Assembly (NCBI GenBank): GCA_964638415.1
Contig: CAZWYP010000001.1
Coordinates: forward strand, 1 to 51,705
Direction: 5' to 3'
From: an uncultured Gammaproteobacteria bacterium
GTDB taxonomy: Bacteria; Patescibacteriota; Patescibacteriia; UBA1558; GWA2-36-10
Length of the DNA: 51,705 nucleotides
Part shown: one piece after another, positions 1 through 51,181 of the stretch
Numbering within the stretch: the stretch's first letter is position 1
How the letters are laid out: each line of letters opens with the position of its first letter
Program-made: the position numbers and the translations under genes
Notes under the pieces: generated by a model
The model's database searches: none
What the model saw: only the letters and a program-made list of their open reading frames with translations
Told to the model about the DNA's origin: nothing

Positions 1-2096
<2,096 letters not shown>

Positions 2097-2454
2097 AAAA
2101 ATCTTGAAAATTTTTGGTCTTACAATTTTAGTACTTTAATCTTGTTGCATTATTGCAAAAATTTTTTTAGATGCTCATAAACATTATTCTATTGTCAATG
2201 TTCCCGTGCCAAGAAGAAGTCATTAGACTTCATCTCCGCCCCGCGGAGACTAATAGTTGACACTAAACAGCGTTTTAAAAGCCGCATTATCCGCCTGCTT
2301 TTAAAAGGCTGTTTGCTATCAACTAAGTTTTAAAGGGGACAAAAAACCGCTTAAAGCGGCTTCAGCTAAAAAACCAACTTTTTACCTAAAGCCTATCTTA
2401 TTTTATTGGTTAATTGTCTGTTCATTCTGCCGTGCACTTAATTATCTTGGTCGT

Positions 2455-3681: not shown

Positions 3682-4023
3682 CTAAGCAGTTGTTGGCTTA
3701 TTGTGGTCTTCAATCAATTTGCGCAGCTCTTGCGTGGTCACGTTGACTACAGAAGCTGCTAAACCGAAGCCACGCGATCCTTCATCAAGTTCGGACAGAA
3801 GAAAACTGAATCGTGAGATTAAGTTTTGACTAGGAGCTGAAAACAAAACCTGCACAACACGATCACCGTCCGAGAATCGACGACCGAAGAGCAAATAGTT
3901 TTTGGCCTCCGTGCCGGAACGACCGCTGATATCCAAAGTAAGTGTTGTGTCTATTGGCTTGCCAGTCTTTGGATTTTTCAAACCAAGTGTTAATTCTGCC
4001 TGAAATACAGTCTGCTGCTTCAT
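3682..4023 (-). CDS. Hypothetical protein, 113 aa
   Basis: ORF with a GAGG SD; first gene of the run. Confidence 0.7.
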   Translation of the reverse strand: MKQQTVFQAELTLGLKNPKTGKPIDTTLTLDISGRSGTEAKNYLLFGRRFSDGDRVVQVLFSAPSQNLISRFSFLLSELDEGSRGFGLAASVVNVTTQELRKLIEDHNKPTTA

Positions 4024-4061: not shown

Positions 4062-4314
4062 CAGCAAATAACTGTAGAAGAAACAGTTTACTAAAGGCTG
4101 TGATGGGCGCTTAAATATATATTTATGGCCCGACAGTTTTAATAAACCTACGCTTTTCTTCTACATTTACCTGCTGAACAAATAAAAACAGCAAATACCT
4201 AAAGGAGAGCATTTGCTGTTTTTAACTTATCTTTGCTTACAAACCCTCTCCCAGAGTTTATTATTTGTTAATATTCTAATTTAGTAATATATCATATTAT
4301 GTAAATATTGTCAA
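4062..4314 (-). promoter_or_regulatory. Promoter, terminator and long rod-like hairpin upstream of the three-gene operon
   Basis: TTGACA-17-TATATT (4314-4286); terminator hairpin 4184-4223; rod with arms 4062-4083 and 4155-4176. Confidence 0.6.
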
Positions 4315-4863: not shown

Positions 4864-4998
4864 AAATATGCTTAATGCTAAATTAAAAAGTCCTGTTTTT
4901 CAGGACAATGGGACATTGTAGCATATTTATTGATTTTTGTCAAGATTATACTCACCTGACGCCAAACATGTTAAACTAGATAAACTGAGCTGTCAATT

Positions 4999-24086: not shown

Positions 24087-25572
<1,486 letters not shown>

Positions 25573-25872
25573 AAATTTGAAAATTAAATCTATATATAAA
25601 AATTTGTTCCGGCTAAAAAACGGATCACTTTGAAATTGTTAAAAAATTGATGAATTGACTTCTCGTTTCGCTCTATCCACTGACTGCATGTCGTGGTACG
25701 AATACGAGATAATCTTGACTAATTGGTCTATATTGTCAAAAAACATTTTCTCTTAAACTGGTAAAAATAGTTCAAGAAAAAACAGCAATGTCCAATCTAG
25801 ACACTTCTGCCTTTCCTTGAAAGCAACTCTAACCTAATTTTTAATCAGCTACATAGTTTTATATGCTCCAAT

Positions 25873-34688: not shown

Positions 34689-35390
34689 TTAAATTTTCCA
34701 CTTTTTCTTATCTAAAGCTTTCTGGGCAGCAGAAATTTGCCCTTCCTGTTTGCTATATCCTTCACCGCTAGCTACCAGCTCTTTTCCTAAATAAACGCCA
34801 ATCTTAAAATGCTTATTATGATCAGGGCCAGACTCTGCTAACACTTTGTAACTAGGGGTAATACCAATAATCTCCTGGGCTTTTTCCTGAAAGAGGGTCT
34901 TGGCATCAATATAGCTTTTATCCGCAATAATCTTATCTAACTCTACCAATAGATTCTTTTTCAGAAACTTAGCCGCTATCTTATATCCTTGGTCAAGATA
35001 GATGGCGCCAATTAAAGCTTCAAAAGCATTAGCCATAATATAGCTGCGCGCTTTTTTATTATTATCCTGCGCTTCACCTCTGCTCATATAGAGATAATCA
35101 TACAAAGATAATTTTTCCGCTTGCGCTGCTAATTGTTCGCGGTTAACCAAACTGGAACGCCAATTAGTTAATACTCCTTCCGGTTCCTGGTAATTGGCAA
35201 TTAAATAATCTGTAACCACTAATTCTAAAACTGCATCACCTAAGAATTCCAATCGCTCATTGTTATCTAAAGCAAAATCCTTATGCTCGTTTAAATAAGA
35301 GCGGTGAACTAAAGCTGTTTTTAACAAATCACGGTTATTAAAATCTATTCCTAAATTTTTTTCCAAATTGGCTAAATTTTTCTGGGTCAT
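34689..35390 (-). CDS. rnc: Ribonuclease III
   Basis: NERLEFLGDAVL signature; C-terminal dsRBD. Confidence 0.97.
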   Translation of the reverse strand: MTQKNLANLEKNLGIDFNNRDLLKTALVHRSYLNEHKDFALDNNERLEFLGDAVLELVVTDYLIANYQEPEGVLTNWRSSLVNREQLAAQAEKLSLYDYLYMSRGEAQDNNKKARSYIMANAFEALIGAIYLDQGYKIAAKFLKKNLLVELDKIIADKSYIDAKTLFQEKAQEIIGITPSYKVLAESGPDHNKHFKIGVYLGKELVASGEGYSKQEGQISAAQKALDKKKWKI

Positions 35391-36253
35391 TTTACCAAAC
35401 CTAATTGCTCTAAACCTTTGTCAAAAATCTCTACTGCATTCTCATAGCCTAAAGTAGCCCTGGCTTCACTCTGAGTAAACCAGCGGACATCCTGCAATTC
35501 TCCCACCTTAGGAATTGTAATCTCTTTATCTGCAGTTTTAACTAAAAAGTATTTAATTAATTTGCGGAAAGGAGTTTCATTAGGCTTATGGACTTTAACT
35601 TGCGTTTCTCCCAAATAGGTAATTACTTCCAAATTCTCCAAACCAGTCTCTTCTCTTAATTCCCGCAAAGCTGCTTGCTCTAAGCTTTCTCCCTGCTCTA
35701 CATGGCCTTTGGGAAAGGTCCATTTGCCATAAGCGTCTAAAACTAAAACGAAATAATAACCGTCGTCTTCCTGACGGTAAATCATGCCACCAGCCGAGAC
35801 TTCCTTAATTCCTTGAGCAGATAAGTTCTGTTTTTCACCGGCTTTAACCATGTCTTTGTAAATACTGCCCAATACTCCATTAACAAACTTGCCGGAAGAG
35901 TCGCCCCCAAAAGCCTTGGCAAGTTCTATCGCTTCGTTAATCGCCACCTTAGGAGGAATATCTGGATTGTATTTCAATTCATAAATCCCAATGCGCAAAA
36001 CATTGCGATCAACAATGGTGATCTGGTCAATTGGCCATTCCGCAGCAAAGCTTTTGATTAACTTATCTATTTTGGACTTATGGCTAACTACTGCCTGAGC
36101 TAATACTAAAGCAAATCCCTGGTCATCAAAATCAGGAGCAAATTCCTGGCGGTTATGCTCCAAAATTTCCGCAATATCTCCCTCACCTTGTTTGAAATCC
36201 CATTCAAACAAAGCTTGTAAAACTAAAGTCCTTGCTAAATGCCGGTTGGCCAT
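35387..36253 (-). CDS. nusB: NusB fused to a C-terminal Nudix hydrolase
   Basis: NRHLAR..VLQALFEWDF, DRNVLRIGIYE, INEAIELAKAF, FVNGVL; then the Nudix box GHVEQGESLEQAALRELREETGL. Confidence 0.92.
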   Translation of the reverse strand: MANRHLARTLVLQALFEWDFKQGEGDIAEILEHNRQEFAPDFDDQGFALVLAQAVVSHKSKIDKLIKSFAAEWPIDQITIVDRNVLRIGIYELKYNPDIPPKVAINEAIELAKAFGGDSSGKFVNGVLGSIYKDMVKAGEKQNLSAQGIKEVSAGGMIYRQEDDGYYFVLVLDAYGKWTFPKGHVEQGESLEQAALRELREETGLENLEVITYLGETQVKVHKPNETPFRKLIKYFLVKTADKEITIPKVGELQDVRWFTQSEARATLGYENAVEIFDKGLEQLGLVK

Positions 36254-36263
36254 TTAAATAACG

Positions 36264-36431
36264 TTAAGCTTTTTTCTCGCCTTTATAATATCCGCACTTG
36301 GCGCAAGCGCGATGAGGCATAGTAGAAGCTCCGCAATTCTTGCACTTGGCTACTGCTGGCTTCTTTAAAGCAAAATGCGAAGCACGGCGGCGCGCGGAAC
36401 TCTTAGTCCTCTTTTGTGATGGTAAACCCAT
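36264..36431 (-). CDS. rpmF: 50S ribosomal protein L32 (55 aa, zinc-type; not in the ORF track)
   Basis: MGLPSQKRTKSSARRRASHFALKKPAVAKCKNCGASTMPHRACAKCGYYKGEKKA. Confidence 0.95.
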   Translation of the reverse strand: MGLPSQKRTKSSARRRASHFALKKPAVAKCKNCGASTMPHRACAKCGYYKGEKKA

Positions 36432-36580
36432 AGTTATTCTCTTTAATTAATAAAATTAGTGCCTTGATAATAACGCTAAAATAGCTTAGCGTCAATAATT
36501 AAGGCTGGGAGAGTAAAAGTTAAGTTAATTATATCAGAAAAATGAAAAAAATCTAAATTTCTAGATTTTTAAAGCTGGAC

Positions 36581-36843
36581 TTGACAATACTTATAATATC
36601 TGCTATACTGCCATATTAGCTGAAATAAACATAAAAAACTCAATACAAACATAAAATTCCTTGGGCTTTTTAAAAATTCTACAGATTCTAGGAATACCTT
36701 CTTAGGTATCTGTGTCCACGACAAGCATGGGAATCTTTTTTAGATTTTATTCGGCTCCGGCTAAATATTTTCTGCAAAAGATTTTCTTGGACACAGATAT
36801 TTGAGAAGGTTTTTAAAACCCTGGCCTAATTGGTCAGGGTTTA
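36581..36843 (+). ncRNA. Candidate orphan structured RNA (~230 nt) with its own promoter and terminator
   Basis: TTGACA-17-TGcTATACT; 23-bp stem 36696-36718/36788-36810 with three G-U pairs; terminator 36815-36843. Confidence 0.6.
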
Positions 36844-36845
36844 TT

Positions 36846-38714
36846 TTATTCAACAACAGGAGGGGTTGAAGTATTAATTGCTCCCGGAGTAGAGCTGGCT
36901 GTCTCTGCTAGTAATTCTTCTTCAGTCACTCCCAATAGGCAAACTTTCTGCCAGGGCACATAGTGGCTGCGGAAGGTAACTAACACTGGCTCTGTCTGAC
37001 CTGAATATTTAACAGTGTAATCAAACTTAGCATCGGCGCCATGATGAGCGCTTTCCGTGCACTTCTGCTTGCCTGGTTCTAAATCCGTAGTCTTAATTAT
37101 TTTCTCCGGTGGCGGTGGCACAATGTTATAGATGGTGGGTTCAGTAATGGTAACTTCTCTACCATCTTTTGTTCCCCAAAAGTCAAAATATAGCTTGGTG
37201 TCTTCTATTCTGGTTTTGATCAAAAGATAATGTCCGGTGTCGTTTTTAAATTTGTAGTCAGGCGCAGGATCATAAATAGTAGCATCAGTGCCCGCCGGCT
37301 CATAATACCTCACGCGGTAAGAGTGGTTACGTCGTTCAGTTACCGGCAAGCCCGAAGCAATAGTTGCCCGAAAAGTAGTGGTGCCAATTTGGCATAAGCC
37401 ACCACCATATTCCGGCTTGGTTTCATTGCCCTTAATTACCAACTCCTGCAGATAGCCATGCTCGCCATCAATAGGACCTAAGGCTTTCAACAAAGAAAAC
37501 TCTTCGTCTGGAGCAATTAAAATGCCATCCAAAGCTTCAGCGCCTACTTTAATATTATGAACGCGATTCACCGGACTGCCGGTAAAATCCGATTCTCCAG
37601 TGCCGATGATTTCCGTAATGCCTAAATCATTAACATCATCATTGGTAATTTTCGGCTCTACGGTCTCTACTGCCAAAGCAATTTCCAGTTCTCCGGAATT
37701 AGCAATAGTTTGTTCCATGGACTGGATGGTTTTTTCTATATCCACTGCTTGACCGGATTGAGCGCCAATAAACTCCTCAACCTTGCCATCAACAATATTA
37801 AACTTAGCATCTTTTACCGGACGGTTTACTTGGTCTAAAATTCCTTCCGCCGTTAAATATTCATTGAGCGCTTCCCCGTCAAAACCGACATAGGCTCTAT
37901 TCTGATCTTTCTTGACCTGCAGCCACTGGCGCCAAACTTCTGAAGGTACTCCCCAATCTTGCTGATCATAAGTCAAATAGAAGTGTCCGCGATTAGCAGT
38001 AGCGATAATATTATTTTCCAGCCCTGCTATGTCTTTGGTAAAAATAGCGGGCGTTTGGGAAATAATAGCCAAAGGAATATCCTGATTGGTTAAATAAGAA
38101 ATCTGTTGAGCAGTTTGTTCCATGGCCTGCTGGTAGTCAAAAGTTTGGCCGGAATTCTCTGGAATAATTTTTATTTTTTGCCCTTCCCAGACAAAATCAG
38201 CGTCCTGCTTAGGAGTTAGTAAGCCGGTTAAATTGTTCTCCAAAATTGTCAAATACTGCTGCTCATCCCATTGATAAGCAATGGGAAAATGCTTATTAAA
38301 CCACAGGGCTTCTAATTTACTGGGCAGATATCTAATGGATTTTTGCTGCTGCCAGACCATAATCTGATCCAAGCTTTTATCAATATCCCAAATGATTAAC
38401 GGCTGGTAAGTGTCCGGGGAATCCACGGAAAAAGCATTAGGATAAACCACCACAGTTTTCAATTCACTCTGGTAAACATAACCTCGCTGATTAATAAAAT
38501 CTATCTTCTGCGCCAAGACTTCCCTAGCTTGCTCATAATTTAAACCAGCTAAATTCAAACTACCTAAGTAAACATTAGGAATAATCCTGTCAGTATAGCG
38601 GTTGTTAATGTAAGCATTAGCGCTAAAAGCGCTAGCCAATAAAATCACAAAAACGGCCACTGTGATCAATGACCATTTTAACCATAAGGTAGTTTTAATC
38701 TTTTCCCAAATCAT
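36846..38714 (-). CDS. VanW-family protein with peptidoglycan-binding (YoaR-like) repeats
   Basis: NRVHNI, FSLL..LG, GGGLCQIGTT.FR, ERRNHSY, GTDATIY, DYKFKNDT motifs; N-terminal TM. Confidence 0.9.
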   Translation of the reverse strand: MIWEKIKTTLWLKWSLITVAVFVILLASAFSANAYINNRYTDRIIPNVYLGSLNLAGLNYEQAREVLAQKIDFINQRGYVYQSELKTVVVYPNAFSVDSPDTYQPLIIWDIDKSLDQIMVWQQQKSIRYLPSKLEALWFNKHFPIAYQWDEQQYLTILENNLTGLLTPKQDADFVWEGQKIKIIPENSGQTFDYQQAMEQTAQQISYLTNQDIPLAIISQTPAIFTKDIAGLENNIIATANRGHFYLTYDQQDWGVPSEVWRQWLQVKKDQNRAYVGFDGEALNEYLTAEGILDQVNRPVKDAKFNIVDGKVEEFIGAQSGQAVDIEKTIQSMEQTIANSGELEIALAVETVEPKITNDDVNDLGITEIIGTGESDFTGSPVNRVHNIKVGAEALDGILIAPDEEFSLLKALGPIDGEHGYLQELVIKGNETKPEYGGGLCQIGTTTFRATIASGLPVTERRNHSYRVRYYEPAGTDATIYDPAPDYKFKNDTGHYLLIKTRIEDTKLYFDFWGTKDGREVTITEPTIYNIVPPPPEKIIKTTDLEPGKQKCTESAHHGADAKFDYTVKYSGQTEPVLVTFRSHYVPWQKVCLLGVTEEELLAETASSTPGAINTSTPPVVE

Positions 38715-45769: not shown

Positions 45770-45951
45770 TATGAGACCTCCTATGTGAAAAGAACATTTT
45801 GGGAAACAACTGCAAGGCTCACTCTAGAATAAGACTCAATTCTCATCTATTTATTGCCTTGTACTTTGGCGTTCCCACGCTCCAAAGTAATATATAATAA
45901 TAGCATATTTTATGCCTTTTGTCAATAATATTAATGTTTATTTAGCTAATT

Positions 45952-50630: not shown

Positions 50631-50740
50631 GTTTCCAGTATAAAACAAAGTTTAATTAAGATAAATACTCCATTTACCAAAAACTCTCTTTATGTTAGGG
50701 TAATAAAAAATGTACTCTACAATACTCTAAGGAGACAAGC

Positions 50741-51181
50741 ATGGAAATCAATAAGGTTCTGGTTGTCTGCTATGCCAACATCAATCGCAGTCCAGTTTTA
50801 GCTGCCTTCTTACGGGCTAAACTAAGTGAGCTTGGAGTTGATAACATCACAGTCGAAAGCGCTGCTCTATCTGAACAACACCTTGTCCGTCCTGCTAATC
50901 GTTTTGCTGTTCAAATTTTAGCTGAACGAGGAATTGACTTGTCTCAACATCGTAGTCGCTGGATTAACGATCTAGACTTGCGGGAATTTCAACTTATCGT
51001 CTGTATGGAAAATTACCAAAAGAGAGCCTTGCAAAAACTCCTAGAAGAAAGTTCTCCCGAAATTGTAGTCACCCACATAGATGATGACTATTGGGATGAA
51101 GAAACCACGCCAAAATATCTACACCAACTAGATAATTCGGCCAAATGGGTTATTGATACCTACATAAAACCGTCGATTTAA
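50741..51181 (+). CDS. Low-molecular-weight phosphatase/ArsC family
   Basis: P-loop VCYANINRSP (CX5R); ESAAL; GIDLSQHRS. Confidence 0.85.
   Translation: MEINKVLVVCYANINRSPVLAAFLRAKLSELGVDNITVESAALSEQHLVRPANRFAVQILAERGIDLSQHRSRWINDLDLREFQLIVCMENYQKRALQKLLEESSPEIVVTHIDDDYWDEETTPKYLHQLDNSAKWVIDTYIKPSI

Follow-up and report, generated by a model that had tools for sequence, protein, structure and literature searches.

Several described classes of RNA share features with the element that is the subject of this analysis. 6S RNA (ssrS; RF00013) is a stand-alone, single-copy RNA of ~150–230 nt, which is transcribed from a strong promoter and carries a conserved interruption in the middle of its hairpin, with covarying stems on both sides. 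SRP (4.5S) RNA (RF00169) forms a single hairpin of ~115 nt with an asymmetric loop (several nucleotides on the 5' side, one on the 3' side) and a short internal region of extreme conservation. The Ro60-binding Y RNAs and YrlA combine a long stem, a conserved bulged helix serving as protein-docking site and a variable distal part; in Y RNAs, the conserved helix is located within the stem that is made by the 5' and 3' ends of the RNA. BoxA/nut-type sites, present in rRNA leaders and in the suhB leader, contain a U-rich motif of the YUCUU type, and the gamma-proteobacterial BoxA consensus is GYUCUUUAANA (PMC5725501). Known BoxA/nut sites are single-stranded and exert their effect in cis, on the transcript as it is being made. 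A further group consists of the orphan structured motifs in Rfam, which were found by covariation, synteny and promoter/terminator signals and have no assigned function.

The gap between vanW and rpmF in the window (the whole stretch of DNA that was analysed, 51,705 nucleotides long) very probably contains a genuine RNA gene. The RNA has a length of ~200–235 nt in the window and of ~150–230 nt in relatives. Its conserved unit is an unbranched hairpin of ~115 nt, consisting of a 22–23-bp helix, a 10-nt bulge opposite a single U, an 11-bp helix and a variable apex. Conserved promoter and terminator signals suggest that the hairpin RNA is transcribed independently, from a single-copy small non-coding gene. 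It constitutes a new RNA family, whose known members all come from a Komeilibacteria-like lineage of the Patescibacteria (CPR). CPR bacteria have tiny genomes and few of them have been cultured; a search of the literature on ncRNAs in CPR bacteria, Patescibacteria and Komeilibacteria returned no described ncRNA and nothing else of relevance. The RNA opens RNA-based regulation to study in a lineage for which the literature searched holds no described case. The first-pass annotation had considered a divergent 6S-like RNA, a new CPR ncRNA, an RNase III substrate or a type I toxin-like mRNA with a sequestered ORF. The second proposal agrees with the data presented below: the RNA is conserved and covarying, is equipped with its own promoter and terminator signals and has no relative in Rfam. 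As in stand-alone structured sRNAs in general, these signals go together with a covarying structure and a non-coding sequence.

Table 1. Features of the RNA locus and of its neighbouring genes in the window.
Feature	Position	Strand	Remarks
nusB/nudix fusion	35387-36253	-	
rpmF	36264-36431	-	
Sigma-70-type promoter	36581-36609	+	-35 TTGACA 36581-36586; 17-nt spacer; extended -10 TGcTATACT 36601-36609 (TG 36601-36602, TATACT 36604-36609)
5' leader	36615-36695	+	A/C-rich, predicted mostly unstructured; variable module outside the conserved core
Helix 1, 5' strand	36696-36718	+	23 nt; pairs with 36788-36810
10-nt bulge CGACAAGCAU	36719-36728	+	opposite single unpaired U at 36787
25-codon ORF inside the hairpin	36727-36804	+	frame not conserved in relatives
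Helix 2, 5' strand GGGAAUCUUUU	36729-36739	+	pairs with 36776-36786
Variable apical region	36740-36775	+	internal loop, short helix, UCNG-type tetraloop (in the window UCCG, 36756-36759)
Helix 2, 3' strand AAAAGAUUUUC	36776-36786	+	
Unpaired U and helix 1, 3' strand	36787 and 36788-36810	+	segment UUUUCUUGG invariant; wider UUUUCUUGGAC BoxA-like
Intrinsic terminator	36816-36850	+	11-bp stem, 5-nt loop (36816-36842), then T run UUUAUUUUAUU; abuts the vanW stop codon
vanW	36846-38714	-	stop codon 36846-36848

In the window, the RNA gene is convergent with vanW and divergent from rpmF-nusB/nudix-rnc (Table 1), and this gene order bears out the orientation relative to the rpmF-nusB-rnc genes that had been noted before. 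The neighbouring genes encode proteins with the Pfam domains VanW/PG_binding_4, L32, NusB-NUDIX (as a fusion), RNase III and Hsp20. The NusB-NUDIX fusion shows a weak match to Nudt16-like decapping enzymes, and the gene order rpmF-nusB/nudix-rnc with this fusion is common across the Patescibacteria (533 metagenome stretches and >6000 proteins).

The promoter upstream of the RNA, described in the first-pass annotation as near-consensus with an extended -10 TG, matches the consensus at 11 of 12 positions in addition to the TG, and the predicted transcription start is at ~36615 (+). The pattern TTGACA-N14-16-TGNTANNNT is found four times in the window versus 0.08 expected occurrences and therefore represents a real promoter type in the source organism. 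The other three exact matches are at 4286–4314, 4915–4943 and 45897–45925, all on the minus strand; the match at 4286 is followed by a leader of ~255 nt before an ORF (3682–4023, minus strand), and a regulatory leader or a further small RNA could be located there. Across the family, TTGACA-16/17-TGnTAnnnT is present at the equivalent site in 25 of the 26 members. The sole exception is L094, in which a gene encoding an HTH_38 domain is located between the RNA and rpmF. This gene (1274–2386 of L094), possibly derived from a mobile element, took the place of the usual sRNA promoter, and the hairpin next to it is intact (88 bits). The opposite strand of 15 of 25 members (L001–L008, L010–L012, L014, L015, L098 and L099) contains TTGTCA-17-TGnTATAAT, which makes use of the sRNA -35 hexamer in reverse complement. 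The promoters of the rpmF operon and of the sRNA overlap in these members and should exclude each other, while the window itself does not have the overlapping arrangement.

The terminator is likewise present as first described, with a hairpin and a T run. All complete copies examined end with a GC-rich hairpin and a U run, and the stem sequences of these hairpins are unrelated; in L017, a run of eight U directly after the big hairpin takes the place of a separate terminator hairpin. In several relatives (L001, L004, L005 and L012), the terminator has both an A run and a U run at its flanks and probably ends both convergent transcripts. At the other end of the RNA, the A/C-rich unstructured 5' segment of the first-pass annotation does exist in the window, but it is not part of the conserved core, because the leader varies between 8 and 81 nt across the family. 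A AAAAUACAAAU(A/C)AAAAU-like tract is found in the leader in the window (36627–36656), L009, L013 and L019, whereas L014 and L015 have it in the 3' trailer. The tract is single-stranded and goes with the hairpin in one subclade, in the manner of a module that can change sides.

The hairpin has a long lower stem, helix 1, for which the first reading of the sequence had reported that the non-Watson-Crick positions are all G-U on the plus strand. This is correct, as the three positions in question are U·G, G·U and G·U. Helix 1 always comprises 22–23 positions without indels, with 97% of the cells paired and compensatory changes in 13 of 22 pairs. The outer 13 pairs show complete turnover of sequence, with compensatory changes in 12 of them, and hardly any variation is seen in the nine inner pairs adjoining the bulge (CUGUGUCCA). 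A-to-G changes on the 3' strand of helix 1 always result in U·G wobbles; read on the minus strand, the same positions would be mismatched. The bulge is identical in all 26 copies, including those of the 13 loci that were retrieved via a protein, and its predicted mean unpaired probability is 0.9.

The inner stem of the first-pass annotation corresponds to helix 2, in which GGGAAUCUUUU pairs with AAAAGAUUUUC over 11 pairs (98.5% paired, four with compensatory changes). It opens with an invariant G-C pair, followed by two invariant G·U pairs; these two pairs, G40·U119 and G41·U118, never turn into G-C. The two helix 2 pairs nearest to the bulge have predicted pairing probabilities of 0.59–0.64. 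Helix 3 in the apex contains seven pairs, four of them with compensatory changes, and in the L017-like subclade (L017 and L093–L096) the apex is 13–17 nt longer and partly re-paired. The flanks of the bulge (roughly 9 + 5 base pairs) barely vary, in contrast to the free turnover of outer stem, apex and leader. Every one of the 26 copies contains the identical 18-mer GUCCACGACAAGCAUGGG, even though the accompanying VanW and NusB-Nudix proteins are 41–66% and 55–74% identical to those of the window, respectively. An 18-nt core that is as invariant as parts of rRNA, next to proteins that are about half identical, indicates that the RNA probably contacts something important.

When the vanW-rpmF gap was collected from relatives, the RNA was present in all 26 Komeilibacteria-like (Patescibacteria) contigs with a readable gap, always in the same position between vanW and rpmF-nusB/nudix-rnc; the proteins encoded on these contigs are only 41–81% identical to those of the window. 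An exact 20-mer of the core was found once per genome in 12 GTDB species, which are labelled as Patescibacteria or are evidently mislabelled MAGs. All 12 loci share the gene order of the window, in which the RNA converges with hsp20, a small ORF and vanW (where the locus reaches that far) and diverges from rpmF, nusB/nudix and rnc. The 20-mer scan is biased towards an intact core, but this is offset by 13 protein-anchored loci, which were gathered via the NusB-Nudix protein and thus independently of the RNA sequence. Among 80 NusB-Nudix metagenome loci, all five that are long enough and have either vanW upstream or a NusB identity of at least 70% contain the RNA. Eight further contigs were retrieved by exact protein look-up as relatives of L017, the most divergent copy, and the RNA is in the vanW-rpmF gap in 8/8; these relatives carry the name Candidatus Komeilibacteria and belong to the phylum Komeiliibacteriota within the Parcubacteria group. 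Metagenomic Logan contigs from soil, groundwater, lake, sludge and wastewater contain the hairpin with 96–98% identity, and in one of them the neighbouring rpmF is only ~81% identical.

Outside this lineage, sister lineages in which NusB-Nudix is at most 57% identical and vanW is missing upstream have no RNA near rpmF. Neither of the two covariance models matched any of 75 sister-clade loci, as searched at the rpmF-nusB locus. L018 and L020 have a co-directional gene upstream of rpmF, separated from it by a gap of less than 140 nt. Searches with the stem arms and with the covariance model found no second copy in the window, and viral contigs gave no match to the RNA.

The covariation of the stem in relatives is extensive. 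A MAFFT alignment of 18 copies yielded 40 consensus pairs, with 97.9% of the cells paired and compensatory changes in 17 of the 40 pairs. None of 500 shuffles was as good on any measure, and controls with slid partners were only 42–55% paired. Alignment of 26 copies to the model gave 97.3% pairing and compensatory changes in 21 pairs and 99 cells; this alignment is fitted to the model, and the independent result is that of the 18 copies. The covariance model scores 83–143 bits on the plus strand versus 25–47 bits on the minus strand, and the folding energy is -78.4 kcal/mol (z = -8.7) for the plus strand versus -60.1 kcal/mol (z = -4.85) for the minus strand. These strand scores, the invariant G·U pairs and the A-to-G wobble changes identify the plus strand as the relevant one and argue for RNA rather than DNA.

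The evidence on strand and locus also bears on the proposal that the element is no RNA gene at all, but a DNA inverted repeat (a MITE or a recombination site), a minus-strand element of a vanW-rpmF transcript or a type I toxin mRNA. What speaks for it is the length of the inverted repeat, the frequent breaks of Logan contigs at the hairpin and the ORF in the window. Nevertheless, this proposal is exceedingly improbable. There is a single copy per genome at a constant locus, the promoter and the terminator face the plus strand, and the G·U pairs weaken the structure of the minus strand or of DNA, as reflected in the folding energies and bit scores. A MITE or dispersed repeat is ruled out by the occurrence of one copy per genome in 12 species and of one in the window, always in the vanW-rpmF gap. 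As annotated initially, the 25-codon ORF is present in the stem, and visual inspection of the sequence upstream of it revealed no Shine-Dalgarno sequence. However, the frame that starts at the invariant AUG ranges from 5 to 81 codons in relatives, and MGI is the only part common to all. This eliminates the type I toxin-like mRNA, and judged by its lack of conservation the 25-codon ORF is not a gene. Among RNA sequencing runs, none contained the sequence of the window, of L001 or of L017, and three sediment metatranscriptomes from the study of one RNA-carrying sample had no contig on the RNA.

Comparison with known families supports the novelty of the RNA. None of the 4227 models in Rfam 15 reached its gathering score anywhere in the window. 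Searches with lax filters at E≤10, performed with positions 36380–36900 of the window and with positions 1940–2170 of the divergent copy L017, produced chance matches only, such as the terminator to the rnk leader, and plant miRNA hairpins. The RNA is therefore not a member of a known Rfam family and is a candidate new entry for RNA family databases. It resembles the orphan Rfam motifs in the way it is recognized and differs from them in matching no Rfam 15 model and in coming from a candidate phylum without a described ncRNA in the literature searched.

The absence of any resemblance to tmRNA, RNase P RNA and SRP RNA, asserted when the sequence was first read, is also supported. A tmRNA or tRNA-like molecule is excluded, as ARAGORN predicted neither a tRNA nor a tmRNA in 36400–36900 and Rfam gave no match. 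RNase P RNA is excluded because its covariance model, which encodes the conserved core helices, did not match, and the RNA is an unbranched hairpin. SRP RNA has its conserved region by the apex, whereas the invariant part of the sRNA is in the middle of the hairpin, ~20 bp below a variable, UCNG-type apex; the GNRA tetraloop, the symmetric-loop motif and a match to the SRP model are all missing. As for Y RNAs and YrlA, there is again no Rfam match, and the neighbouring genes scanned include no rsr, rtcB or other Ro-associated gene. The position of the conserved helix in Y RNAs also differs from the arrangement in the sRNA, where the outer 13 bp are the variable part.

What the RNA does may be approached from the distribution of its conserved positions. 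Probably, this structured, stand-alone sRNA serves as an RNP scaffold or decoy and offers a sequence-specific docking site, most likely for a protein. Because the bulge and its flanks are constant, the outer stem, apex and leader are free to vary and the helix lengths are fixed, the invariant bulge and the adjoining helical sequence would constitute a docking site that is specific in both sequence and shape and is recognized by a conserved macromolecule. The invariant helical sequence around the bulge suggests that this partner is a protein. The RNA would then work as an RNP scaffold or decoy, and neither as a messenger nor as a classical antisense RNA with a linear seed. It offers a concrete handle for experiments, consisting of the covariance model, a bulge that can be mutated and candidate partners that are encoded next door.

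The same conserved positions have been weighed against other modes of action. A base-pairing sRNA would use the exposed 10-nt bulge, perhaps widened by melting of the G·U pairs, as a seed for AUGCUUGUCG-like mRNA sites, and the hairpin would only present or stabilize this seed. The invariance and the predicted 90% unpaired state of the bulge are in line with such a role, as are the standard sRNA layout of promoter, seed and terminator and the AUG within the complement of the bulge, which is reminiscent of start-codon targets. A pure seed, however, does not require invariant helices on both of its sides, and a search of the window and 26 loci yielded no complementary site that recurs, with matches at chance level only; base-pairing is therefore regarded as unlikely. 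RNase III, encoded by rnc in the adjoining divergent operon, is another potential partner, either because the RNA is a precursor processed at the lower helix or because it is a decoy for the enzyme. The lower helix is fixed at 22–23 bp, i.e., about two turns, and is free of indels despite the turnover of its outer sequence, so that an RNase III substrate is plausible on account of the constant helix length. As the primary function, this is nevertheless highly improbable, since an enzyme of little sequence specificity leaves the invariant bulge and its flanks unexplained, and cleavage by RNase III could go together with the other explanations instead of competing with them.

Two further proposals connect the RNA to the transcription machinery. 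As a decoy or loader for NusB-S10, it would titrate or deliver the antitermination factor of the divergent rpmF-nusB/nudix-rnc operon via the BoxA-like, invariant 3' strand AUUUUCUUGGAC. The position of nusB two genes away and the shared -35 hexamer region of the sRNA and operon promoters in 15 of 25 members count in favour of this proposal. The segment UUUUCUUGGAC, which is short and U-rich, is identical in 10 of 11 positions to UUUUCUUGAAC in the 16S leader (25770–25780, minus strand), ~90 nt downstream of the rRNA promoter; no differences inside this leader motif are listed for the contigs of relatives, and its flanks differ. Within the window, TTTTCTTGRAC occurs only in the 3' strand of the sRNA and in the 16S leader, versus an expectation of 0.12. 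The motif retains C4 and U6 of the gamma-proteobacterial consensus given above; to our knowledge, the BoxA of this phylum has never been defined. In contrast to the known cis-acting sites, the sRNA motif is on a separate, divergent RNA, and while BoxA is bound in single-stranded form, the motif is base-paired in the consensus structure. In an unbiased local alignment of the 3' strand with the window, the rRNA leader is not the top match, the shortness and U-richness of the motif weaken the comparison, and the invariant 5' bulge is left unexplained. This proposal is accordingly given a quite low probability.

A functional analogue of 6S RNA would be an abundant hairpin that binds the RNA polymerase holoenzyme, with the bulge and the breathing G·U pairs mimicking an open promoter. 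The size of ~150–230 nt, the single-copy gene with a strong promoter like that of a stable RNA, the extended hairpin with its conserved mid-helix opening and constant helix lengths, and the weak pairs nearest to the bulge all fit such an analogue. The consensus interruption, however, comprises 10 nt on the 5' side versus 1 nt on the 3' side and does not form a two-sided bubble; a small 3' side would arise only if the two weak bulge-proximal pairs melted. In addition, the helices are near-perfect compared with the bulge-rich stems of 6S RNA, the core is conserved in sequence whereas 6S RNA is conserved mainly in shape, and the sRNA is known from only one CPR lineage. Two divergent members gave no match to a 6S model at E≤10 with lax filters. 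Thus, the earlier suggestion of a divergent 6S-like RNA is not upheld and a 6S-type function is very unlikely.

Elements of both proposals are combined in a broader one, according to which the RNA is a trans-acting, CPR-phylum-specific regulator of transcription or ribosome biogenesis, either as a BoxA-bearing NusB-S10 decoy or as a 6S-like polymerase binder with a one-sided bulge. The overlap between the sRNA promoter and that of the rpmF-nusB-rnc operon in most members implies that the RNA and the operon would be expressed reciprocally. The probability of this broader proposal is low; if it is true, the RNA represents a new solution to a global regulatory problem. The docking-site reading remains the preferred one.

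Several individual sequence matches within the window were also inspected. The best local match to the sRNA core is GACAAGCAUGGAAAUCAAUA at 50732–50751 (+), which is identical in 17 of 20 positions, has the same sense and lies where the translation of a low-molecular-weight phosphatase gene starts. As only three homologues of this gene are detectable, it is ruled out as a family-wide partner, and the match is probably due to chance or a trace of common origin. The bulge and its neighbours (ACGACAAGCAUG) are complementary to CAUGGUUGUCGU in 16S helix 34 (24541–24552, minus strand) at 10 of 12 positions with one G·G mismatch, which is at chance level. A likeness of the bulge to CCACGACAUGCA in the 16S leader (25685–25696), the only other match in the window, is not retained in a close relative and is not the top local alignment.

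The rRNA genes themselves are unlinked in this stretch of DNA, because the 23S (1–2096, minus strand) and 16S (24088–25572, minus strand) genes are ~22 kb apart, each with its own promoter-like site and leader; the window has no 5S gene. The 23S leader contains CUUCUUGGCAC at 2200–2220 (minus strand), which, like the candidate BoxA UUUUCUUGAAC of the 16S leader, resembles the 3' strand of the sRNA.
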